From: Escherichia phage Phi1
Length of the DNA stretch: 64,000 nucleotides
Strand: one strand, 5' to 3'
Sequence record: EF437941
Both the position numbers and the translations under genes were made by a program. Below are positions 19,914 to 38,329 of this stretch, in pieces; within the stretch, counting starts at the first letter, position 1, and every line of letters starts with the position of its first letter. The notes beneath the pieces are model-generated. The model searched no databases. It was not told the DNA's origin and worked only from the letters and a program-made list of their open reading frames with translations.

Positions 19914-20126
19914 TTATAATGCACCATCGAGCAATTGCTCTAAGGTGTATCCTGAATAGTCTTTTTCAATCAGGGTATATTTTCCTACTCGTTTAATACA
20001 ACCGCGCATTTCAACGTATTCTGCGTAGTTGATGGTACGAGTTGTTCCATCTTCCAGTAATGCAGTACCGATTTCGTTAATGCGGTCATAAGTTACGTCG
20101 GTAATGATGATTTCGATGTTAGCCAT
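19914..20126 (-). CDS. hypothetical protein (70 aa)
   Basis: ORF preceded by the conserved PeSL leader and RBS. Confidence 0.55.
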   Translation of the reverse strand: MANIEIIITDVTYDRINEIGTALLEDGTTRTINYAEYVEMRGCIKRVGKYTLIEKDYSGYTLEQLLDGAL

Positions 20127-20447: not shown

Positions 20448-21002
20448 TTAGTTATTTTTTAATTGCTCATCTTGCAATAGGGAAATCACATGCTGGCGAT
20501 GTTCTTCCGATTGAGGGACACCGAAAAAGTTTGTTTTGTAGAAATACTCTAATCGGTCTTCTCGTGTGCTCTCTTCCATCATGATCGCGGGTAGTCCGAG
20601 ATTTCGGAAACGTCGCTTTTCTGCTGGCGTAAAATCACTGTAATACAGCATAGAATCATCGTTACCAGCAATGCTAAACTCATCATTCATGAAGGAGAAT
20701 ATTGCGTTTAAACGCTGTTTACCGTCCACGATTTCGATCTCATAGCGAGAGCCATCATCAATCTTAGCCATTGCGATAGCACCAACCGGAAAATCATTAA
20801 TCAGGTTTTCGATAAACATACGTTTGTTTTCGGTGTCCCATACCAAAGGACGCTGATAATCTGGGTTCATGTTGATATAGCCATCTTCTAACCACGCCTC
20901 ATAAACAGAGATGACAAAGTTTTTAGTATTGGTATAGTAACGGCGTTTAGGCGTTAAACGGTTCATGTTATAGTCTCCTGAATGGATCATCACGTAAATC
21001 AA
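20448..21002 (-). CDS. DUF262 (ParB-like nuclease/NTPase domain) protein
   Basis: Motifs NPDYQRPLVWD and VDGKQRLNAIFSF match the DUF262 signature (FQR..W ... DGQQR). Confidence 0.65.
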   Translation of the reverse strand: MIYVMIHSGDYNMNRLTPKRRYYTNTKNFVISVYEAWLEDGYINMNPDYQRPLVWDTENKRMFIENLINDFPVGAIAMAKIDDGSRYEIEIVDGKQRLNAIFSFMNDEFSIAGNDDSMLYYSDFTPAEKRRFRNLGLPAIMMEESTREDRLEYFYKTNFFGVPQSEEHRQHVISLLQDEQLKNN

Positions 21003-21300
21003 TATCTTTTAAGAACTCATCCCATGAATGGCGGATATTGTTCTTAATTCTCCAGATAAGCGCAGGGATTGAACGCTCTCCCATCTGGAAGTAAGGATCA
21101 TATGATCCGTATGCCCAATATGCTACTACAATTCCACAATCAGCGCAATAATATTCTATTTCACTTGCTGGCGACCAAAGTCCATCAATATGATCGGTGA
21201 TCCTGCTTTCGATGTTATGGCTATGGCAATCAGGGCAACGGATGCAATGACCTTGTTTATCGTAATTTGACGTTAGCGAATACTTAAACAATCTCATCAT
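20968..21300 (-). CDS. zinc-ribbon protein (CxxC...CxxC)
   Basis: CIRCPDCHSH ... YYCADCG Cys pairs; overlaps neighbouring genes at both ends (coupled operon). Confidence 0.5.
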   Translation of the reverse strand: MMRLFKYSLTSNYDKQGHCIRCPDCHSHNIESRITDHIDGLWSPASEIEYYCADCGIVVAYWAYGSYDPYFQMGERSIPALIWRIKNNIRHSWDEFLKDIDLRDDPFRRL

Positions 21301-22013
21301 AGATCCTTATTGGCTTCAAATACTGCCTTTGCGAATCCTCGCGGGGTAAGTGACCTGATAGTCTTTGTTCTGGTTCCTTTCCCGCCTAGCTTAGAATGCT
21401 GTTTACTGTACCCTTTATTAATATGCAACGGTTTCTTTTCTGGCATTATAAAGCCTTGTCCGGTCCATAAGCAAGTCTTTTTCGGGTACATATCACGGGC
21501 GGCAATATACTCAGGAAACGTAGGATGTTTATCATCTTCCGGCAAATAACCGCCATATTCCCACGGATGGAACATGTAATCAGGCTTACGCCACATACTA
21601 GAGATAACGCTTACAGGATTCTCTATCATGTAGGGAACTCCTAGCCATTCACCCAAATAAGCGGTTATTTTAGCTGCCCGTACATCATGAACTTGAATCA
21701 ATGGTCCTTGTTCTCGTTTCTTTCGTTCAAAGTGTGCAGCGCCACTAACAGCTAAATTGGTGCACGGTGGGAATGCAAATATAATATCCGGTTTCCCCCA
21801 TTCAAGGTCCATTGCTCTTTCCAGCCAGTTCAAATCAATCCAGGTGTTTACATAAGTAATGTTTGGATGTTCAAATCTGGTATTATACTTTTTGTATGTA
21901 CCGTGGTCGGCGTCATCCGCATTAAAGCAGACTACCTTATGACCTGCTTTAGCCCATTCTAGCCCCATTATCCCCGATCCGTCAAAGTTGCAGAATATTA
22001 ATTTTTGTTTCAT
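21297..22013 (-). CDS. short C5-cytosine methyltransferase-like protein (putative)
   Basis: FCNFDGSGIMG (motif I-like FxGxG), IIFAFPPCTNLAVSGA (motif IV-like PC catalytic dipeptide), MIENPV (motif VI-like ENV). At 238 aa it is too short to hold a full target-recognition domain. Confidence 0.45.
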   Translation of the reverse strand: MKQKLIFCNFDGSGIMGLEWAKAGHKVVCFNADDADHGTYKKYNTRFEHPNITYVNTWIDLNWLERAMDLEWGKPDIIFAFPPCTNLAVSGAAHFERKKREQGPLIQVHDVRAAKITAYLGEWLGVPYMIENPVSVISSMWRKPDYMFHPWEYGGYLPEDDKHPTFPEYIAARDMYPKKTCLWTGQGFIMPEKKPLHINKGYSKQHSKLGGKGTRTKTIRSLTPRGFAKAVFEANKDL

Positions 22014-22255
22014 ATACGACCCTTTAACCCAGCACAGATTTTAGTCGGTTCTTTACCGTGCCACATTAAGTAAAGTCCGTTAATGCGACCTTGTTTTGTG
22101 TGTGATTCTTTTCTGATCTTCTTATAGTGTCGTGCTTCCTCAACTGATTGTTTAGAATACCAATCATAAAGGAAGAGGCACAAAGGCCAACCATTAGCGG
22201 CCTTAATGCAGTTATTAAGAAATTCCTTATTGCGTTTAATTAATTTTCTTTTCAC
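22010..22255 (-). CDS. hypothetical basic protein (81 aa)
   Basis: ORF translationally coupled to neighbours (4-nt overlaps). Confidence 0.5.
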   Translation of the reverse strand: MKRKLIKRNKEFLNNCIKAANGWPLCLFLYDWYSKQSVEEARHYKKIRKESHTKQGRINGLYLMWHGKEPTKICAGLKGRI

Positions 22256-22503
22256 GCTGCCCCCATTGGTTTGATAGTAACAGAATCTAAAAGACCTTTG
22301 TTAGCCAGTTCGCGGCAAGTTTTCAGATCCGTAACTTCCCAGCCAGCCGCAATCAGGTTATCGATGAGGCTGTTAGCTACTTCCTCGCTCATGAAAGAGC
22401 ACTGTTTGCCGATGGTGTAGCGCACACGATGTAATTTCAGTTTACGGAAGCCTTTAACGTTCAGGTCTTTAGCGATTTTCTTTGCGGTTTCGATGTTAGC
22501 CAT
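22252..22503 (-). CDS. hypothetical protein (83 aa), first gene of the operon
   Basis: Preceded by PeSL leader GGAGAATCAAACA and a promoter cassette. Confidence 0.55.
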   Translation of the reverse strand: MANIETAKKIAKDLNVKGFRKLKLHRVRYTIGKQCSFMSEEVANSLIDNLIAAGWEVTDLKTCRELANKGLLDSVTIKPMGAA

Positions 22504-22550
22504 TGTTTGATTCTCCTAAGTGGTATCTCGTTTCGATGGTTGTATTGTAG

Positions 22551-22573
22551 GGGGAGTTATCCTCCCCTGTCAA
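22551..22573 (-). promoter_or_regulatory. PeSL-type early promoter cassette
   Basis: Hairpin ggggag-ttatc-ctcccc (22551-22567) abutting plus tgtcaa 22568-22573. Confidence 0.55.
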
Positions 22574-22587
22574 CACTTTTTATAAAA

Positions 22588-22755
22588 TTATTTGTTAATT
22601 TCTGGTGCGTTGCTAGGATAGTAACCTTCTTTAACTCCGAGGTATTTCGCAACCATCCCTACAATCTTCTGTGCTACTACAATGTCAAATTTCAGATAAT
22701 CTTCGCCGTGGGTTTCAATGATATATGCTTCACATGCTGCTTTAGTCTCGAACAT
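22588..22755 (-). CDS. hypothetical small protein (55 aa), duplicated gene copy 1
   Basis: MFETKAACEAYIIETHGEDYLKFDIVVAQKIVGMVAKYLGVKEGYYPSNAPEINK; about 90% aa identity to CDS 25863..26030. Confidence 0.55.
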   Translation of the reverse strand: MFETKAACEAYIIETHGEDYLKFDIVVAQKIVGMVAKYLGVKEGYYPSNAPEINK

Positions 22756-22794
22756 TTTGATTCTCCTATTTCGTTTCGGTATGTGTGTAGTATA

Positions 22795-22817
22795 GGGGAT
22801 CTCCCGACCCCCGTCAA
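22795..22817 (-). promoter_or_regulatory. PeSL-type early promoter cassette (imperfect hairpin)
   Basis: ggggatctcccgacccc (one substitution from the palindrome at 27233) followed by plus cgtcaa (minus TTGACG). Confidence 0.5.
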
Positions 22818-22831
22818 CAACTTTTTTAAAA

Positions 22832-23113
22832 TTATTCGTGATTAGTTTCGATGTTGTGCATTTTGCACCAGTTCAACCAATCACCCATATCTTGATAGTT
22901 GATGCTTTTATCTGCTGCCATCGTTTTTGTCTTGATACCCATATGTGCGTTATGAGTAAGCATTTTTACAGTGAACTCAATTTTATCGCCTTTAGCTTTA
23001 ACATCAACCAGTTTGGTCCACTGGCTACCAGCGCCGCGAATGTTCATACCAACGATGTTTCCGATGTATGCTTCTTTGTTTTTCAGGATTTCGGTTGCTT
23101 TGATGAATTTCAT
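22832..23113 (-). CDS. hypothetical protein (93 aa)
   Basis: ORF with conserved PeSL leader upstream. Confidence 0.55.
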   Translation of the reverse strand: MKFIKATEILKNKEAYIGNIVGMNIRGAGSQWTKLVDVKAKGDKIEFTVKMLTHNAHMGIKTKTMAADKSINYQDMGDWLNWCKMHNIETNHE

Positions 23114-23170
23114 TTTTGATTCTCCAGTTCGTTTCGGTATGGGTGTATTATGCTATGTTCTTACTTTGGT

Positions 23171-23176
23171 GTCAAC
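23171..23176 (-). promoter_or_regulatory. early promoter -35 element with conserved leader, no clear stem-loop
   Basis: Plus gtcaac (minus GTTGAC) with leader gtttcggtatgggtgtattat and RBS before the ATG at 23113. Confidence 0.4.
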
Positions 23177-23183
23177 AACTTTT

Positions 23184-23453
23184 TTAGATATTTTCAGAAA
23201 TAAATTTTAAAACTTGACGTAAATGTTTCTCATCTTTGATAGTCGCCGGAAGTTCTTCTTTTACTTCCTGTGCAAGATAGATATTTCCGTTCCAAGTGAA
23301 AGATCCGTCTTTGTTTACGCGATAGCTGAACATCCACTCGCAATCATTTTCGATTTCATATACACACAGAAGGGTGTAATCGTTAAAGCTATTGATTTCA
23401 AGGTCGAAGCCGTGACGTTTTGCAAAGTTGGTAGTGGTTTTAGTCAGTGCCAT
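23184..23453 (-). CDS. hypothetical protein (89 aa)
   Basis: ORF with conserved leader upstream. Confidence 0.55.
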   Translation of the reverse strand: MALTKTTTNFAKRHGFDLEINSFNDYTLLCVYEIENDCEWMFSYRVNKDGSFTWNGNIYLAQEVKEELPATIKDEKHLRQVLKFISENI

Positions 23454-23516
23454 TGTTTGATTCTCCTAAGTGGTATCTCGTTTCGATGGGTGTATTATGC
23501 TATAGGTCGGATCTGG

Positions 23517-23522
23517 TGTCAA
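23517..23522 (-). promoter_or_regulatory. early promoter -35 element with conserved leader
   Basis: Plus tgtcaa (minus TTGACA) preceded on the minus strand by an A-tract; conserved leader follows. Confidence 0.4.
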
Positions 23523-23552
23523 TTCTTTTTTTAAAATTTTATGCAATAAAAA

Positions 23553-23572
23553 AGCCGACGCTAAGGTCGGCT
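23553..23572 (-). terminator. Rho-independent terminator (minus strand)
   Basis: Stem AGCCGAC / GTCGGCT with loop gctaag; minus-strand U-tract (plus A-run 23546-23552). Confidence 0.55.
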
Positions 23573-23579
23573 AATAAAA

Positions 23580-23888
23580 TCATTTAGACAAATAATCATT
23601 CAGTGCAATCCGGTCGGCGTATGCTGGTGTTACGTCAATCGCAATCACTTTAACGCGTGCTTTCTTGCGACCTGGGTTTTCACGTAACCAGTGCTCATGA
23701 CCGTGAACATTTTTATACTGCGATGCTTCTTCGAAGGTACGGATCGGACCTGGGTAATCAGCGTAAAGGATCTCTAGATCTTCGGTGATGTAAAAATATA
23801 CATCATAATTACTGTTCTCTAGTTTAAGCAGAGACTTTCGGAACATTGGGAGATTTTCGCGGGTAAATTCAAAGATATTATCTTTCAT
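23580..23888 (-). CDS. HxHW-motif small protein, paralog family member 1 of 6
   Basis: YDVYFYITEDLEILYADY...HGHEHWLRENPG...VKVIAIDVTPAYADRI; shares the family pattern with five other ORFs. Confidence 0.6.
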   Translation of the reverse strand: MKDNIFEFTRENLPMFRKSLLKLENSNYDVYFYITEDLEILYADYPGPIRTFEEASQYKNVHGHEHWLRENPGRKKARVKVIAIDVTPAYADRIALNDYLSK

Positions 23889-23916
23889 AGTATTATCCTC
23901 AATAGTTGGATGAGAA

Positions 23917-23932
23917 GGGGCGTTAACGCCCC
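23917..23932 (-). terminator. GC hairpin, possible terminator or RNA-stabilising 3' structure
   Basis: GGGGCG-ttaa-CGCCCC; flanking U-tract is weak. Confidence 0.3.
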
Positions 23933-23938
23933 CATATA

Positions 23939-24226
23939 TTAAAACAGTCCTTCATGTACACCGTAGTAGAGTTCGTCGCTGATAATTTCATTAATGCGAC
24001 GGTGTGCATATTCCTGATTTGCGAAGTTGTCAGCAAGTTCTACTTTAGTTTCGCCGTCATGAGTCCATTTAGTGATAACTTTACCATCTGCAAATTTGAA
24101 GTTGAACTCTTTAGCTACTGCATCGCGTACCAGACGTGCAAACTTATTGTTGCGGATTGCATTGTCGGTTTCGTGTGAAGCGTGAGCAAATTTGTTAACT
24201 TTCAGAGTGATAGTGATGTATGCCAT
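23939..24226 (-). CDS. hypothetical protein (95 aa)
   Basis: ORF with PeSL leader; weak similarity to CDS 27265..27576 (shared AKEFN motif). Confidence 0.55.
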   Translation of the reverse strand: MAYITITLKVNKFAHASHETDNAIRNNKFARLVRDAVAKEFNFKFADGKVITKWTHDGETKVELADNFANQEYAHRRINEIISDELYYGVHEGLF

Positions 24227-24266
24227 AATTTGATTCTCCTAGTTAGAAAGTGTATCTCGTTTTGAT

Positions 24267-24301
24267 GGGGATATTATGCTATATCCCCGATCCGGTGTCA
24301 A
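24267..24301 (-). promoter_or_regulatory. PeSL-type early promoter cassette
   Basis: Palindrome ggggatat-tatgct-atatcccc (24267-24288), which contains the -10 CATAAT on the minus strand; plus tgtcaa at 24296-24301 with 17-nt spacer. Confidence 0.6.
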
Positions 24302-24307
24302 CACTTT

Positions 24308-24586
24308 TTATAAAATAATTTTTTGATATTTTTCTATGATGTTCGTGTAAGTCACATCAACCGCTAGCACCGTTGCTTCGAATCCACCGTTTAGCCAATG
24401 GCTATGATCATGGTCGTGAAAGAAACCTAGACCAGTACGAAGACCTTCTTTATATTCTGCGCGTACATTCAGTTTGTCGTCGATAAACAGATAAAACCAT
24501 GAATTTTTACTAGGATTGATGATACAACCTTTCAGATTAGGGAGAATATCACGACTAAGAATAAACTTATCACCTACTTTGAACAT
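24308..24586 (-). CDS. HxHW-motif small protein, paralog family member 2 of 6
   Basis: SWFYLFIDDKLNVRAEY...HDHDHSHWLNGGFEATVLAVDVT; start taken at ATG 24584-24586, which has a GAGGA RBS. Confidence 0.6.
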   Translation of the reverse strand: MFKVGDKFILSRDILPNLKGCIINPSKNSWFYLFIDDKLNVRAEYKEGLRTGLGFFHDHDHSHWLNGGFEATVLAVDVTYTNIIEKYQKIIL

Positions 24587-24590
24587 AATA

Positions 24591-24911
24591 TTAGTCCTCA
24601 CTTATAAGGTCAAACCAATTGTTTTTCGCATAATGCTTAATGCGTGCTTGATCTGCTTCCGCTGGTGATAGATTCCATGCAACCACTACAACTTCTGACG
24701 CATCGTCATCCGTTTCTGATACCCAATGATTGTGATTCATACAGTTATTTGCTATCGAGTGAGCAAATGATTTCATCACTGGAGACGTATAATCATAGTA
24801 ACGGATTTTCAGATTTTCATCAACATACAAATAGATCGTATAAGGTTTATATTCAGTAACCAGTAACAGACAGTTACGCAATTCTGGGAAAATCTTTTTA
24901 GTTAATTTCAT
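24591..24911 (-). CDS. HxHW-motif small protein, paralog family member 3 of 6
   Basis: YTIYLYVDENLKIRYYDY...NHNHWVSETDDDASEVVVVAWNLSPAEADQ. Confidence 0.6.
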   Translation of the reverse strand: MKLTKKIFPELRNCLLLVTEYKPYTIYLYVDENLKIRYYDYTSPVMKSFAHSIANNCMNHNHWVSETDDDASEVVVVAWNLSPAEADQARIKHYAKNNWFDLISED

Positions 24912-25113
24912 ATTCTAGTTCTCCGTAATACACGGTAATCCATTTTTCTTCATACTTTGTATCTTTCCAACACACAATACCGTTTACTGTGCAATCTTTG
25001 GAATTGACGAATGATTCATATTGTTCCGCATCTTCCATCATTTCATGAGCGGTCTTTTCATCGAATATATCGCAGATCGCTTTATATGCTCGATAATCTT
25101 TAAATTTGCTCAT
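24898..25113 (-). CDS. hypothetical small protein, tandem paralog A (MSKFKDY family)
   Basis: MSKFKDYRAYKAICDIFDEKTAHEMMEDAEQ... is paralogous to the adjacent 25116..25325 product (MSKFKDYKAYQQILRVYEPEFAEKMMEDAS). Confidence 0.55.
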   Translation of the reverse strand: MSKFKDYRAYKAICDIFDEKTAHEMMEDAEQYESFVNSKDCTVNGIVCWKDTKYEEKWITVYYGELEYEIN

Positions 25114-25115
25114 AA

Positions 25116-25325
25116 TTAACACCACTCAAGAGTTTTTGAAAACACATCTATCCATTGTTGAGTATATGCGGTTTCTTTCCATGATACAATACCAGTCGAA
25201 TAATGGTTTTTGTTTCCAGAAAAGGACGGGCATTTTGATGCATCTTCCATCATCTTTTCGGCGAACTCTGGTTCGTATACTCGCAAGATCTGTTGATATG
25301 CTTTATAATCTTTAAACTTACTCAT
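25116..25325 (-). CDS. hypothetical small protein, tandem paralog B (MSKFKDY family)
   Basis: See paralog A; start overlaps the upstream stop (ATGA). Confidence 0.55.
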   Translation of the reverse strand: MSKFKDYKAYQQILRVYEPEFAEKMMEDASKCPSFSGNKNHYSTGIVSWKETAYTQQWIDVFSKTLEWC

Positions 25326-25606
25326 AACAACACCACCGATACATCGTAATCATTCGCGGCCTTATCGGCTTCTTCAACCGACATAATACCTTCTGCGACA
25401 ATTGGCATAGGGTGATCGTGATTCCACCAATGGTCATGTATATCAATTTCAGTTTTGCCGGAAAATGAATCATGTTTGACGTTTTTCACTTTATACCCGA
25501 TGTGACCGTCGTGGTCAATAAAGATATAGTTTCCGAAAATCGGTGTCTGTAAAATCATACCGAAAAATTTTTCTTTGTTGTTCGGGTCGAGTGTAATCAT
25601 TTTCAT
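25322..25606 (-). CDS. HxHW-motif small protein, paralog family member 4 of 6
   Basis: NYIFIDHDGHIGYKV...IDIHDHWWNHDHPMPIVAEGIMSVEEADKA. Confidence 0.55.
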   Translation of the reverse strand: MKMITLDPNNKEKFFGMILQTPIFGNYIFIDHDGHIGYKVKNVKHDSFSGKTEIDIHDHWWNHDHPMPIVAEGIMSVEEADKAANDYDVSVVLL

Positions 25607-25619
25607 AATATATTCCTCT

Positions 25620-25799
25620 TAGAAAGGGATGGTCATTTCTTGAGCTTGTACATTCTCATTAGGATTAAACTTAATCCAACCGATATTGTCTACCAGCATA
25701 TGCACATTTTTATCATATCCTACGTGAGTAGTCAACACTAAATGTGATTTACCTTCAACGATGATTTCCATGTACTTCTGAACTTCGATAGCTTTCATT
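25620..25799 (-). CDS. hypothetical small protein (59 aa)
   Basis: ATG 25797-25799 preceded by GGAGAATCAAA leader; translation MKAIEVQKYMEIIVEGKSHLVLTTHVGYDKNVHMLVDNIGWIKFNPNENVQAQEMTIPF. Confidence 0.45.
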
Positions 25800-25825
25800 T
25801 TGATTCTCCGTTTGTTGTCTTGATG

Positions 25826-25860
25826 GGAGTATCTTACTACTCCCTTTAATCATTGTCAAC
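25826..25860 (-). promoter_or_regulatory. PeSL-type early promoter cassette
   Basis: Palindrome gggagta-tcttac-tactccc (25826-25845); plus tgtcaa at 25855-25860; minus-strand -10 TAAGAT sits in the loop. Confidence 0.55.
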
Positions 25861-25862
25861 TA

Positions 25863-26030
25863 TTATTTGTTAATTTCCGGTGCGTTGCTTGGATAGTAAC
25901 CTTCTTTAACACCCAGATATTTTGCAACCATTCCGGTGATCTTCTGTGCTACTACGATATCGAATTTCAGGTAGTCTTCACCGTGGGTTGCTACAAAGTA
26001 TGCTTCGCATTCTGCTTTAGTCTGGAACAT
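25863..26030 (-). CDS. hypothetical small protein (55 aa), duplicated gene copy 2
   Basis: MFQTKAECEAYFVATHGEDYLKFDIVVAQKITGMVAKYLGVKEGYYPSNAPEINK; the ORF-track entry 25863..26117 reads through the promoter, so the start is set at ATG 26028-26030. Confidence 0.55.
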   Translation of the reverse strand: MFQTKAECEAYFVATHGEDYLKFDIVVAQKITGMVAKYLGVKEGYYPSNAPEINK

Positions 26031-26069
26031 TTTGATTCTCCTATATCTCGTTGGTATGTGTGTAGTATA

Positions 26070-26092
26070 GGGGATCGGTGATCCCCTGTCAA
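26070..26092 (-). promoter_or_regulatory. PeSL-type early promoter cassette
   Basis: Minus strand reads TTGACA-ggggatcaccgatcccc-TATACT: the 17-nt palindrome forms the spacer exactly. Confidence 0.65.
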
Positions 26093-26100
26093 CAACTTTT

Positions 26101-26409
26101 TTATTCTTCATCTTCATTTTTATCTTTATATGCGTACTTCATAAATTTGTCTGCTACTTTGTCCGCGTTTTCAGGTTCTACGTCTGACGCTAGGACAACA
26201 GCTAGTTCGGTTTTGTCGTTTCCATCATACCAATGATTATGAGTGTCGTTTTCTTCGATATAAAACGAATCATTTGGAGTTGTGCGACAATATACGTCTA
26301 AATTCCCATCGATATAAAAGATCCAATCCGAATACAAAATGATTGCGTTAGCCAGATTTTTATTGTCTCTTACAAAAGGTTCCGCGACAAATAGCTTAGT
26401 TTGTTCCAT
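26101..26409 (-). CDS. HxHW-motif small protein, paralog family member 5 of 6
   Basis: DWIFYIDGNLDVYCRT...NDTHNHWYDGNDKTELAVVLASDVEPENADK; start at ATG 26407-26409 with GAGGAA RBS. Confidence 0.55.
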   Translation of the reverse strand: MEQTKLFVAEPFVRDNKNLANAIILYSDWIFYIDGNLDVYCRTTPNDSFYIEENDTHNHWYDGNDKTELAVVLASDVEPENADKVADKFMKYAYKDKNEDEE

Positions 26410-26425
26410 AATATTTTCCTCAAAA

Positions 26426-26617
26426 TTATACAGCTTCGTAAACTTCCCAATGTTCAGCGCCAACACGCTTAACGAAAAGGTTTTCTTTGATGTTATTCAT
26501 AAACGTCTGGATGGATTTAATGCGGTTGGAAGGTTTCCAGTCTTCGTTGGCATTGCGATGATACATAATAACATTACCAGTTCGCTTATATTCAGCAACC
26601 ATTTTAAGACCACACAT
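26426..26617 (-). CDS. hypothetical protein (63 aa)
   Basis: ORF with GAGGA RBS 8 nt upstream of the ATG. Confidence 0.45.
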   Translation of the reverse strand: MCGLKMVAEYKRTGNVIMYHRNANEDWKPSNRIKSIQTFMNNIKENLFVKRVGAEHWEVYEAV

Positions 26618-26674
26618 AATATTATCCTCAATTTGTGGGAGAGTATTACCCCTCCCAATGATTGTTATGTTATA

Positions 26675-26995
26675 TCACACAAAATGGCGTGTCAATGCTT
26701 CTTTTGCGGTTCCGCTAAGACTTTCGATCTCGCCTGGCATAACATCAACCGCCAGAACTTCTACAACATCCTCGGACCCTAACCAGTGAGTATGGCCTTT
26801 GTAGAACTTGATAACCAGACTACCTTCCTCATCCCATTTAACACTATCGCTAGCCCACCACACATCACCGTCGATAAAGTTGATGTAAAGCACACTACGC
26901 CACATTGAATTAATTACTTTCAATACTGCGCCTTTCATCTCTTCCACGGTATGGTCTTCCATTTTGAAGACCTCACCTACCTGAACTTTTGCCAT
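26675..26995 (-). CDS. HxHW-motif small protein, paralog family member 6 of 6
   Basis: SVLYINFIDGDVWWASD...YKGHTHWLGSEDVVEVLAVDVMPGEIESL. Confidence 0.6.
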   Translation of the reverse strand: MAKVQVGEVFKMEDHTVEEMKGAVLKVINSMWRSVLYINFIDGDVWWASDSVKWDEEGSLVIKFYKGHTHWLGSEDVVEVLAVDVMPGEIESLSGTAKEALTRHFV

Positions 26996-27012
26996 TTAGT
27001 CACCTCTCTTTA

Positions 27013-27192
27013 TTACATAACAATCACGCCAGCCGTTGAAAGTTGATGTTTCAACTGAGCATTTTCTGCTACCGTCAAATCAATGATTTCTTGTGACGCT
27101 GCAATCATATATCCATTGGTGATATTGTTTTGCATCAGTTCAATGGTTTCTTCGTTGTAGCGGATTTTAGCGATGATTTCGTTGAAGTTCAT
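27013..27192 (-). CDS. hypothetical small protein (59 aa)
   Basis: ATG 27190-27192 with GGAGAATCAATC leader; translation MNFNEIIAKIRYNEETIELMQNNITNGYMIAASQEIIDLTVAENAQLKHQLSTAGVIVM. Confidence 0.45.
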   Translation of the reverse strand: MNFNEIIAKIRYNEETIELMQNNITNGYMIAASQEIIDLTVAENAQLKHQLSTAGVIVM

Positions 27193-27232
27193 GATTGATT
27201 CTCCTAGTTCGTTTCGGTATGTGTGTATTATA

Positions 27233-27256
27233 GGGGATCTCCCGATCCCCTGTCAA
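27233..27256 (-). promoter_or_regulatory. PeSL-type early promoter cassette
   Basis: Palindrome ggggatc-tccc-gatcccc (27233-27250) abutting plus tgtcaa 27251-27256; -10 TATAAT on the minus strand. Confidence 0.65.
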
Positions 27257-27264
27257 CAACTTTT

Positions 27265-27576
27265 TTAAAGTTTTTCCATGATAACGGTCATAATTACATC
27301 TTCTGCGCGAGCGGTCAGATTATCAGCGTCAGCATGTGGGCGGTTGGTTGTTACAGAGATAACACCGTTGCGCACTGGTTTGATATTGATATCAAGATGA
27401 TCCGCGAAACGTTCGCCAGTTACAGAATGAATTTTGGTGTTAAATTCTTTTGCCAGTGCCTTGCGAACTTCACGAATCAGGGTAGCGTTTTTCAGTTGGT
27501 TCTCCGCGCTCATGGTCTTCTGGGTGTTCATGGTTCCGTCGAAGTCAATCATTGGCAGCGTTACGATGTATTTCAT
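27265..27576 (-). CDS. hypothetical protein (103 aa)
   Basis: ORF with PeSL leader. Confidence 0.55.
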   Translation of the reverse strand: MKYIVTLPMIDFDGTMNTQKTMSAENQLKNATLIREVRKALAKEFNTKIHSVTGERFADHLDINIKPVRNGVISVTTNRPHADADNLTARAEDVIMTVIMEKL

Positions 27577-27628
27577 TTTTGATTCTCCGTTTAAGAAAGT
27601 GTGTTTCGTTTTGATGTGTGTATTATAA

Positions 27629-27651
27629 GGGGATCACCGATCCCCTGTCAA
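27629..27651 (-). promoter_or_regulatory. PeSL-type early promoter cassette
   Basis: Palindrome ggggatcaccgatcccc (27629-27645) abutting plus tgtcaa 27646-27651. Confidence 0.65.
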
Positions 27652-27663
27652 CAACTTTTTGAA

Positions 27664-28140
27664 TTATTTTTCTTGATGCTCGCGCTCGTACTTTTCGAAA
27701 TAAAATTCTACTGGCTGATCGTGGATTGAAAGCAAGCCAAAGCGTTTAGCCGCTCGCAATCCCATATTGCGCTGAATGTACTTCTGGAAGTTCTCGCGTA
27801 TACACTTACGCCAGGATTCTAAGCCCATACAGCTTTTATAAAGATTGCATTGCACACACGCCGGATTCATGTTATCAAGTATATCATGCTCCGGTTTATG
27901 CATTCCTACAACCTTATACTTCCACGATCCATCATCATTACGAGCAATTCGTCCATTTTCATCATAGACTACCTTTGAGCGTCGTAATACTGGTTTGATG
28001 TGGTCTGCGTGCCAGCGATCCCCTAGTTCCTCGCCACAATAGGCACAACGTCCACCATATTTCATTTTCAGGATCTGGCGTTGCTCTTTCTTTGACAATT
28101 TTTTAGGTTTAGGGGCTTTCGCCCCTTCATTATCACACAT
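27664..28140 (-). CDS. HNH endonuclease (putative homing endonuclease)
   Basis: HNH signature CAYCGEEL...WHADHIKP...NMNPACVQCN; start overlaps the 3' end of the DNA ligase gene. Confidence 0.7.
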   Translation of the reverse strand: MCDNEGAKAPKPKKLSKKEQRQILKMKYGGRCAYCGEELGDRWHADHIKPVLRRSKVVYDENGRIARNDDGSWKYKVVGMHKPEHDILDNMNPACVQCNLYKSCMGLESWRKCIRENFQKYIQRNMGLRAAKRFGLLSIHDQPVEFYFEKYEREHQEK

Positions 28141-29635
28141 CGAATACCTCTTTTACTGTATTTGCAGTGGTCTTGTCGTAGCGAATACGTTTGATGATCG
28201 GGAGAAATAAAGAGAACTCCGGTTCATCTTCTTTACGTGATTTGCTTCGAATGTACCCGTTGCATGTCATCTCAATGACTTTTCCGACCAGGTTATGCCG
28301 TTCAGCCCATAACATTTCTCGGTCAAGATCATTTCGACGATCGAACGGAATTACACGTTCAATACCATCATCACATTTTTCGGTTGTGGTGTCAGTCAAT
28401 CCCGATCCGGTGTTAGTCATCATTCGTCCGCACGCACTACGGACAGTAAAACCGCCCACCTTATTAGGATCTTTACTATGCGGATATACATCAACAATTT
28501 CCGCGTCGAAGTCAATCACTTCTTTAAATTTAACCTGATCTTTACTGCGACGATCTTCAAATACACCATGTAAATTTTTAAGGATAATACCTTCTAATCC
28601 CATGTTTACATAGCGATGATATACTTCGCGAGCTTCATCGAGATTGTTAACTACGGTATTTTCGATTATCTGAACACGAGGATCGTTAAGTTCTTCAACA
28701 ATCTGTTTTAGTTCCTCAAATCGATCTTTATACTGCTTCGTTGCTTTCTCGTTACCGTAGTACACATCACGGTCGATAACATCCCAGACAGTGTAAACAA
28801 TACATTGGGCTTCTTCTTTTGGAATAGTTCCTTTCAGTGATTTGTTGAGGATACCATTTCCGGTCTGACGATCTGCAACAACGGATTCTTTCACTGCTTC
28901 CGTTACTGGCGTTAATGGCATTTCCTCTTCTTCAAATATCCATGACAGAGTACCATCATAAACGCTCTCAACGAAGTTCTGCGCTGGTGTTTGCGAAAGG
29001 GTAGGCATATATACCAATTCGCCATCTAGAACAATTCCACGGCCTCGTAAACGCTCTAAAACCGCAAACAAATCATCAAGCCCTTGATAGGTATTACCTG
29101 AGCGGGTATAGATTGCTAATGTTTCCCCGTCAATATCAGCCATCCCACGAGCGCCATCGCTTTTAAGTTGTGCATACGCCGGATACTTGATATTAGCAAT
29201 AGTCTTGTCAGAACATGACGATGCAAGGTGGCACGGCTGCTGGGGGATCAGTTTCTTCCATACCTTGTTTGCAGTGGTAGCGGAACAACCGCATTCCAGG
29301 TCACGATTCAGGACCATCATTGCAACTTTAGCATCATCCTCTGACAAGCAAGTCAGAGTATCGGTAACTAGCTGTAATGCTGCATTACCAGTTACTTGAC
29401 GCGTGGCAAGTTTATTTTTAAAGACCTGTAATGCACCGGATAAAGACAATACAGACGAATAACGCGATGGTTTATCGTATTTCTTTACGCCAAACGTAAC
29501 CTGTTTGCAATATGCCAGATAAAAGCATTCTTTCAGCGTTTCATTGCTCGCGGATTCTTTCAGAATCTTTTCTTTCAGCGATGTTTTGTCTGTTGCTGCA
29601 AGCTGATTAATGATATTAAGAATTGACATTTTCAC
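28133..29635 (-). CDS. 30: ATP-dependent DNA ligase gp30
   Basis: Matches T4 ligase blocks: AMMVLNRDLECG...ANKVWKKLIPQQP, KADGAR, GELVY, NKSLKGTIPKEEAQC, EGIILKN, KFKEVIDFDAEIV. Confidence 0.9.
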   Translation of the reverse strand: MKMSILNIINQLAATDKTSLKEKILKESASNETLKECFYLAYCKQVTFGVKKYDKPSRYSSVLSLSGALQVFKNKLATRQVTGNAALQLVTDTLTCLSEDDAKVAMMVLNRDLECGCSATTANKVWKKLIPQQPCHLASSCSDKTIANIKYPAYAQLKSDGARGMADIDGETLAIYTRSGNTYQGLDDLFAVLERLRGRGIVLDGELVYMPTLSQTPAQNFVESVYDGTLSWIFEEEEMPLTPVTEAVKESVVADRQTGNGILNKSLKGTIPKEEAQCIVYTVWDVIDRDVYYGNEKATKQYKDRFEELKQIVEELNDPRVQIIENTVVNNLDEAREVYHRYVNMGLEGIILKNLHGVFEDRRSKDQVKFKEVIDFDAEIVDVYPHSKDPNKVGGFTVRSACGRMMTNTGSGLTDTTTEKCDDGIERVIPFDRRNDLDREMLWAERHNLVGKVIEMTCNGYIRSKSRKEDEPEFSLFLPIIKRIRYDKTTANTVKEVFDV

Positions 29636-37988: not shown

Positions 37989-38156
37989 TCACTTTTTAAC
38001 ACAAAAGAACTTAGTATTTCTGTTAACTTCGCTATCCCGTTGCAATTCCTGCATGGCTTCAAAACAATTTTGATGTGATGAAAACTCTACGCTGGTAACA
38101 GTTCCTTTATTATATGATCCTACGCTAACGGAAAGCAATAACCATAATGTAGCCAT
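37989..38156 (-). CDS. small protein with hydrophobic N-terminus, tandem paralog 2 (55 aa)
   Basis: MATLWLLLSVSVGSYNKGTVTSVEFSSHQNCFEAMQELQRDSEVNRNTKFFCVKK; paralog of 38156..38329. Confidence 0.45.
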   Translation of the reverse strand: MATLWLLLSVSVGSYNKGTVTSVEFSSHQNCFEAMQELQRDSEVNRNTKFFCVKK

Positions 38157-38329
38157 TAGTTCACCTTTTGTTTTTCAACGCAATATAGATTCATAAAGCG
38201 TTTATTGTCTTCGCGGATAATCTCGCGAGCTTTAACGCAATCCTGCTTTGTTGCAAACTCAATGCTTGACATATTTCCGTAATTATACATTGAATTGCTT
38301 ATTGCAATCAATAACCATACAGTAGCCAT
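38156..38329 (-). CDS. small protein with hydrophobic N-terminus, tandem paralog 1 (57 aa)
   Basis: MATVWLLIAISNSMYNYGNMSSIEFATKQDCVKAREIIREDNKRFMNLYCVEKQKVN; TAATG stop/start overlaps at both ends. Confidence 0.45.
   Translation of the reverse strand: MATVWLLIAISNSMYNYGNMSSIEFATKQDCVKAREIIREDNKRFMNLYCVEKQKVN

Follow-up and report, generated by a model that had tools for sequence, protein, structure and literature searches.

A probably ancient duplicate of a PeSL-bounded 55-codon early gene in Escherichia phage Phi1

Two gene copies in PeSL-bounded modules

The 64,000-nucleotide stretch of Escherichia phage Phi1 analysed here (sequence record EF437941; hereafter the window) carries two closely similar early genes of 55 amino acids (aa), each behind a promoter-early stem-loop (PeSL), a cassette type defined in phages RB49 and phi1 by Arbiol et al. 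2010 (PMC2839356). Copy A (22588..22755, minus strand) is the ortholog of RB49 ORF191 (RB49p191) and of BN201_0197 in Enterobacteria phage GEC-3S. Its paralog, copy B (25863..26030, minus strand), is the ortholog of RB49 ORF205 and GEC-3S BN201_0208. The proteins are identical at 49 of 55 residues (89.1%) and the genes at 142 of 168 nucleotides (nt; 84.5%), bearing out an initial annotation, made from the window alone, that had described the two coding sequences (CDS) as about 90% identical in protein and similar in DNA. Third codon positions hold 19 of the 26 nt differences. No paralog pair in the 64 kb is closer than A and B, every other pair found by blastp being 25–46% identical, and neither tblastn nor blastn found a third, partial or degenerate copy in the window.

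Similarity between the loci runs without gaps from ~22828 to 22587 for copy A and from ~26103 to 25862 for copy B, a period of 3275 nt. The repeat starts in the AT-rich tract immediately upstream of the −35 box and ends 1 nt past the stop codon, at the beginning of the next PeSL; outside these limits the DNA of the two loci is unrelated. Against the possibility, raised in the initial annotation, that only the promoter cassette is shared, the pairwise alignment reaches that last nucleotide past the stop codon. A PeSL stands at either end of each module, and the repeat ends in or at these cassettes. One full period (22756..26030, minus strand, 3275 nt) holds copy B, the orthologs of RB49 ORF204 to ORF193 (11 genes) and the associated PeSLs.

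Both loci lie in a run of small hypothetical genes between alt and the DNA ligase gene. All genes of region 21000–28000 are on the minus strand, and the alt–ligase interval holds more than 20 hypothetical genes, with 10 promoters annotated there in GEC-3S. This region is 98.7% identical to GEC-3S and 91–95% identical to ~60 other Krischvirus records; we assign the window to Krischvirus, the RB49-like "pseudo-T-even" T4-type coliphages. The region is hyperplastic, and its PeSLs precede small genes of unassigned function. RB49 ORF192, the model case of Arbiol et al., is absent from the window, as in phi1, and the cassette of copy A directly follows ORF193.

Promoters and stem-loops of the cassettes

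The cassette before copy A (PeSL-A or PeSL193/191; 22756..22831, minus strand) comprises an AT-rich tract, a −35 box TTGACG (22812–22817), a stem-loop (22795–22811), a −10 box TATACT (22789–22794) and an AGGAG Shine-Dalgarno sequence. That before copy B (PeSL-B or PeSL206/205; 26031..26100, minus strand) has a −35 box TTGACA (26087–26092), a stem-loop (26070–26086), a −10 box TATACT (26064–26069) and a 5′ untranslated region (UTR) with a Shine-Dalgarno sequence. The order of elements is the same in front of each copy: TTGAC(G/A), a 7-bp G/C-rich stem-loop, TATACT, 5′UTR and AGGAGAATCAAAATG. The initial annotation had placed the two PeSLs at 22795–22817 and 26070–26092, coordinates that are right for the −35 box plus stem-loop; the −10 boxes come after. 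An AT-rich tract with the stop of the preceding gene stands at one end and the Shine-Dalgarno sequence and start of the next open reading frame (ORF) at the other (TAATTTTAAAAAAGTTG...AGGAGAATCAAAATG for A, TAAAAAAGTTG...AGGAGAATCAAAATG for B), and the Shine-Dalgarno sequences of A and B are identical.

Both stem-loops lie between the −35 box and the −10 box and have 7-bp stems (GGGGGTC-GGGA-GATCCCC in PeSL-A, GGGGATC-ACC-GATCCCC in PeSL-B). Minimum free energies of the hairpins are −13.9 and −13.8 kcal/mol for A and B, with fold z-scores of −1.7 (weak) and −3.1. The PeSL-A stem has a G.U wobble in the window (GGGGGTC/GATCCCC), where other Krischvirus genomes have GGGGATC. Match to the sigma-70 consensus is 10/12 for A (TTGACG-17-TATACT) and 11/12 for B (TTGACA-17-TATACT). 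Each copy is thereby predicted to have its own near-consensus sigma-70 early promoter. PeSL-A is annotated as a promoter in GEC-3S, and RB49 PeSL206/205, the ortholog of PeSL-B, had promoter activity of ~13,000 Miller units (PMC2839356). Terminator activity was reported for another cassette, RB49 PeSL211/210 (PMC2839356). Since the PeSL stems lack a T-run, the terminator or attenuator activity reported for them must be weaker or work differently. Window positions 22000–28200 hold a single canonical intrinsic terminator, a stem plus T-run at 23553–23572 (minus strand).

The downstream boundaries of the two modules differ in sequence. That of module A is PeSL191/190 (22504..22587, minus strand), with stem GGGGAG-GATAA-CTCCCC between −35 and −10 (−18.3 kcal/mol, z −4.3). 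That of module B, PeSL205/204 (25799..25862, minus strand), is of a different subclass, with a stem GGGAGTA...TACTCCC that straddles the −10 box TAAGAT.

We extracted 17 cassettes from the window, each from the AT-rich tract through the ATG, and compared them. PeSL-A matches the 27256 cassette, whose downstream gene (59 aa) is unrelated, at 92% identity, PeSL-B at 86% and the 20440 cassette at 84%; the identities of PeSL-B to the 27256 and 20440 cassettes are 83% and 81%. Cassettes of the PeSL-A/B subclass are thus 81–92% identical regardless of the gene behind them. Across genomes, moreover, the loop (GGGA, GGT or ACC), the −10 box (TATAAT or TATACT) and the 5′UTR (ACCGAAACGAAATAGGAG or ACCAACGAGATATAGGAG) assort independently between loci. 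The A locus of JSE has the ACC loop that the window has at its B locus, and the B locus of E26 has the GGGA loop typical of A. Because the PeSLs of the subclass are all alike and their sub-elements assort independently, the original upstream boundary of the duplication cannot be read from the sequence. We considered PeSL similarity as a marker of that boundary and rejected it, since cassettes before unrelated genes are equally or more similar.

As far as the sequences go, then, the two PeSLs do not demonstrate co-duplication. The initial annotation had taken the pair as direct evidence that the cassettes travel with, or mediate the duplication of, small gene modules. The window offers no such direct evidence, given that PeSL-A is closer to the 27256 cassette than to PeSL-B; the idea fares better indirectly, through natural deletion and fusion junctions inside PeSLs (below) and an ORF191 mini-circle reported in RB49 (PMC2839356).

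Age of the duplication

Divergence of A from B was compared with divergence among orthologs. Between the copies the nonsynonymous divergence (dN) is 0.055 and the synonymous divergence (dS) is 1.04 (NG86) or 0.67 (LWL85), for a dN/dS of ~0.05, and both copies are maintained by strong purifying selection. Synonymous divergence is uneven along the gene, at 1.73 over codons 1–40 and 0.28 over codons 41–55. By comparison, ortholog dS between the window and nine other Krischvirus genomes was 0–0.17 for A, B, ORF190, ORF193, ORF194, ORF198 and ORF204; the sole exception, 0.28, was copy B of PTE-Eco09, with its conversion tract (see below). Paralog dS is thus well above, not at or below, ortholog dS in close genomes.

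We also assembled 27 alleles from 17 genomes, 12 from the A position and 15 from the B position (the window and 16 related loci). An IMG/VR scan for further alleles gave two loci, and alleles were taken one record at a time from GenBank phages. Mean pairwise nt differences were 3.8 among A alleles, 3.9 among B alleles and 23.5 between A and B. Window copy B has F12, found in no other allele of the set.

In a survey of synteny and copy number across 57 Krischvirus records, both copies occupied the same syntenic positions in ~50, RB49, JSE and GEC-3S among them, and all 57 kept at least one copy. The initial annotation had called the duplication recent and had looked to related phage genomes for a date. 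The term is wrong, because paralog dS (1.04 overall, 1.73 over codons 1–40) is far above ortholog dS and the two copies are syntenic in most records; that comparison makes the duplication ancient. By our estimate it is at least ten times older than the sampled Krischvirus diversity.

Exchange of sequence between the two loci

Alleles of the set carry tracts of the other locus's type. The A-locus copy of PTE-Eco09 is B-type from the −10 discriminator via the 5′UTR to CDS site 24, that is, through codon 8 (protein MFQTKAECEAYIIETHG). At six consecutive diagnostic sites (51–75), Brandy and PTE-Eco09 have A-type sequence in the B-locus copy (run probability 9e-5, among 26 sites), and the A-locus copy of kvi is B-type at sites 99–120 (run probability 3e-4). 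Lengths of the exchanged tracts are 5, 6 and ~10 consecutive diagnostic sites, the probabilities of 3e-4 and 9e-5 belonging to the 5- and 6-site tracts. At the A locus of Whisky, the 5′UTR is of B-type.

Polymorphism at sites 141 and 153 is common to both loci. The four-gamete test was failed by 60 of 276 informative site pairs, and the minimum number of recombination events (Rmin) was 4 within 168 nt. Tracts, shared polymorphism and four-gamete incompatibility, the marks of interlocus gene conversion, are all found here. The alleles are shown by these patterns to be A/B mosaics, and the copies with their cassettes still recombine.

Codons 41–50 encode the same peptide in every homolog, yet their DNA is 97% identical between A and B and only 70–83% identical to that of outgroups. 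With the peptide held constant, the closer match of A to B indicates that the 3′ similarity is due to homogenisation, not to nucleotide constraint. Short conversion tracts bring A-type sequence to the B locus and take B-type sequence the other way, and they have homogenised the last ~15 codons.

The pattern resembles interlocus (ectopic) gene conversion in cellular genomes, with mosaic divergence, shared polymorphisms and four-gamete incompatibilities, and with an "island" of divergence, at codons 3–15 and 32, that persists beside the homogenised 3′ end. It differs from the cellular cases in its setting, a 240-bp repeat in a lytic phage, where exchange probably proceeds through T4-type recombination-dependent replication machinery. 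Some A/B exchanges may occur between co-infecting genomes rather than inside one genome.

Natural deletions and fusions

Module A is absent from Brandy and JK32, which have identical junctions, and from UPWr_E1. In these three genomes ORF193 is followed by the −35 box, stem and −10 box of PeSL-A, joined (...ACACACAT followed by CAAGACGAGATAC...) to the 5′UTR of ORF190. MIZ4 and MIZ5 lack ORF191 through ORF186 (also counted as A plus six downstream genes), and their junction joins a cassette with the stem-loop between the boxes to the 5′UTR of an ORF185-like gene. In Brandy, JK32, UPWr_E1 and MIZ4 the deletion junction lies past the −10 box and ahead of the Shine-Dalgarno sequence. Crossovers between adjacent PeSLs have removed module A alone, or A together with downstream genes in MIZ4 and MIZ5.

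FL04 and Cognac lack exactly one repeat period, 3275 nt with 11 genes and one copy, leaving the order ORF206, one PeSL, one 168-nt gene, PeSL191/190, ORF190. The FL04 crossover lies inside the promoter part of the cassette, with A-type sequence from the 5′UTR onward; Cognac keeps the B-locus stem-loop and a B-type 5′UTR and is A-type by codon 3. The ORF206 alleles of the two phages differ as well. The different crossover points and different ORF206 alleles point to two independent events, and the simplest reading is that FL04 and Cognac each underwent a B × A deletion of the 3.3-kb interval.

Other changes around the copies include loss of genes upstream of B in phiS and PTE-Eco09, and different extra genes just upstream of A, ORF192 in RB49 and EpJSE_00199 in JSE.

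Two otherwise unrelated genes of the window, at 22252–22503 and 19914–20126 (both minus strand), share their first 16 nt, ATGGCTAACATCGAAA (encoding MANIE; 22488–22503 and 20111–20126), and have no blastp match to one another even at an E-value of 100. PeSL-type homology seems here to reach into the first codons, which suggests past crossovers within gene starts. The MIZ4 deletion joins exactly these two MANIE gene-start contexts.

Homologs outside Krischvirus and polarity of the pair

Outside Krischvirus, homologs are rare: we found four clusters among 5.8 billion proteins, without names or Pfam domains. The nearest are from L020 (Logan SRR5584643_240, an unclassified metagenomic contig of 7.6 kb), at 83% identity, followed by siphovirus genes of Swiduovirus and Skatevirus at 70–72% and Sashavirus at 40%. 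A and B differ from one another at 6 residues, and either differs from the L020 homolog at 9–12. As the copies are closer to each other than to the outside homologs, duplication within the lineage is favoured over two acquisitions, although sampling is thin.

In L020 (3723–4165) the 55-aa gene directly follows a homolog of ORF194 and overlaps its stop codon, with no cassette between, and the two are predicted to be translationally coupled. The L020 ORF194 homolog is 41% identical (E 3e-25) to window ORF194 (23184–23453), a near neighbour of copy A. The linkage of the 55-aa gene to ORF194 thus appears to predate the PeSL-rich arrangement of Krischvirus. Relative to the outgroups, four residues are derived in B (Q3, A14, N15 and T32) and one in A (A7). 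Because the L020 homolog has the ORF194 neighbourhood of A, and because B has more derived residues, we infer with moderate confidence that A is parental and that B derives from it and evolves faster.

A B-type copy was also seen in a 77-aa protein (P0004) from a 1.7-kb Logan contig. Its called ORF starts within a translated PeSL (MHTYQRDIGESK...), and it ceases to follow the family beyond about codon 40 of the gene, at residue 53 of the 77-aa call. It may represent a module, truncated or rearranged, of another Krischvirus-like genome, or else an artefact of assembly.

Origin of the pair

We read the pair (probability about 0.8) as an ancient duplicate of a single-gene module, PeSL plus 5′UTR plus 55-codon ORF, that is older than the divergence of all sampled Krischvirus genomes. 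The original duplication would stem from PeSL × PeSL recombination, the mechanism of Arbiol et al. 2010. In RB49 those authors found, by inverse PCR and sequencing, a mini-circle with ORF191–194 formed by a PeSL × PeSL crossover between the −10 box and the ATG; they reported encapsidated mini-circles and hypothesised that a mini-circle might reintegrate at a different PeSL (PMC2839356). By one route, then, a PeSL-bounded mini-circle would have been excised and reintegrated at another PeSL in a co-replicating genome. By another, unequal exchange between adjacent PeSLs would have duplicated the module, with genes later inserted between the copies. The two routes give indistinguishable end states, and what suggests mini-circle integration at a different PeSL is only the dispersed, PeSL-bounded arrangement.

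A fuller scenario can be offered tentatively. The pair might record the "paste" half of PeSL shuffling: a single-gene mini-circle excised at the ORF194-side locus and reinserted 3.3 kb away at another PeSL, after which the N-terminal helix of B diverged under selection while conversion kept the C-terminal motif identical. The gene would have an important early function, as all 57 records keep at least one copy.

Other explanations were weighed. Had one copy been made from the other shortly before sampling, carrying its PeSL along, the 89% protein identity, the standing of A and B as closest pair in the window and the near identity in DNA of the last 15 codons (dS 0.28) would all be expected. 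Such a recent event is refuted by synonymous divergence and conserved synteny, with dS at 1.0–1.7 over most of the gene against 0–0.17 for orthologs and both copies fixed in position in ~50 of 57 Krischvirus records; the similar 3′ ends are explained by gene conversion, polymorphisms there being shared between the loci. We give it almost no credence. A larger segmental duplication, with A and B the best-kept part of an old multi-gene block, would fit the presence upstream of each copy of a gene from a family with an H-x-H-W motif (the HxHW family, below) in a region full of old paralogs, and the genes at 23939–24226 (upstream of A) and 27265–27576 (upstream of B) look related by eye. Yet blastp at E 1e-3 gave no match between those two, other paralogs in the region are only 22–46% identical against 89% for A and B, the gene orders of the two blocks are not one-to-one, and directly beyond the PeSL and stop codon the flanks are unrelated. 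We rejected this explanation as very improbable, on the low identity of the nearby paralogs and their mismatched order.

A xenologous origin is harder to set aside, and we regard it as unlikely. B would be an ortholog that had diverged in another phage lineage and was inserted at a PeSL when two phages co-infected a cell, for example from an encapsidated mini-circle of the kind reported by Arbiol et al. (PMC2839356), and the copies would be pseudo-paralogs. The family is patchy among unrelated phages (Swiduovirus, Skatevirus, Sashavirus and the unclassified contig), so it moves horizontally, and near-saturated dS is compatible with divergence in separate lineages. However, A and B have 6 differences against 9–12 to L020 and ~30% to the siphovirus genes. 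They also share H16, which is derived relative to the outgroups though polymorphic, three A-locus alleles having Y16. The 5.8 billion proteins, where the family is very thinly sampled, with only the 4 clusters, yielded no donor lineage with a B-like allele.

Several points weigh against an ancient module duplication followed by conversion. The gene is only 168 nt long, its dS is saturated and hence imprecise, and gene conversion blurs any date; by itself the 5′/3′ contrast in synonymous differences is borderline (Fisher p = 0.052). A cassette copied with the gene and a gene landing beside a resident cassette would look the same in the sequence. The polarity of change in single-copy genomes, loss or gain, depends on parsimony and age, the junctions themselves being reversible, and the reintegration step is drawn from sequence comparison rather than experiment. 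The functional part of this reading is weak as well: the guess at a role is little supported and the structure model poor (pLDDT 64.7; see below).

The genus, the hyperplastic region and the cassettes are the same as in the PeSL shuffling described for RB49 and phi1 (PMC2839356, PMC4122927), and natural deletion junctions are placed like those of the RB49 mini-circles, past the −10 box but ahead of the Shine-Dalgarno sequence (PMC2839356). Those studies treat insertion, deletion and replacement between phages; duplication, paralogs and gene conversion go unmentioned in both Arbiol et al. 2010 (PMC2839356) and Comeau et al. 2014 (PMC4122927), and our literature search for phage-specific duplication or gene conversion in these regions found nothing relevant. 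The new elements are the paralogy of ORF191 and ORF205, tract exchange between the two loci and the B × A fusions that delete 3.3 kb. PeSL shuffling is the published explanation for the plasticity of hyperplastic regions in T4-type phages, with only excision, deletion and replacement documented so far; a PeSL-bounded dispersed duplicate is compatible with reinsertion.

The pair is a well-documented new instance of a known mechanism, with modest additions in interlocus conversion and paralog-mediated deletion. At the population level, 240-bp repeats of PeSL plus gene are active recombination substrates in nature, yielding conversion and 3.3-kb deletions. The B × A fusion offers a convenient assay by PCR, as ORF206-forward and ORF190-reverse primers should detect it. 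For dating, the pair teaches that copies of a tiny gene under strong constraint can keep high protein identity without being recent duplicates. The gain for biology is limited, as the protein has no assigned role and the mechanism is not new.

The encoded protein

Both copies match the PHROG 8009 profile over their full length (residues 1–55 of 55; E 6.8e-38 for A and 5.9e-38 for B). This family has no assigned function, so membership says nothing about role, and Pfam gave no match for either copy. An AlphaFold2 model built on a 5-sequence alignment was weak (pLDDT 64.7, predicted TM-score (pTM) 0.33). It places helices at residues 5–16 and 19–39, with the most conserved motif, KEGYYPSNA, in a low-confidence tail. 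Residue differences between A and B cluster in helix 1 and at residue 32. Our best guess, with little support, would be a small helical early protein whose conserved C-terminal KEGYYPSNA contacts a host or phage partner.

Other paralogs in the region

Six small proteins (~95–120 aa) form a divergent paralog family, 22–32% identical, whose genes are interleaved with the A and B modules. These HxHW-family genes are at 23580–23888, 24308–24601, 24591–24911, 25322–25606, 26101–26466 and 26675–26995 (span 23580–26995, minus strand). The H-x-H-W motif is invariant in their proteins and precedes a V-x-V-L-A-x-D-V-like segment, and blastp detects only one pair among them. A tandem paralog pair beginning MSKFKDY... 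lies at 24898–25125 and 25116–25325 (minus strand; 46% identity, E 6e-19), and a second tandem pair at 37989–38156 and 38156–38329 (minus strand) is 38% identical. To judge from these sequences, duplication of tiny genes is common in the plastic regions of this genome.

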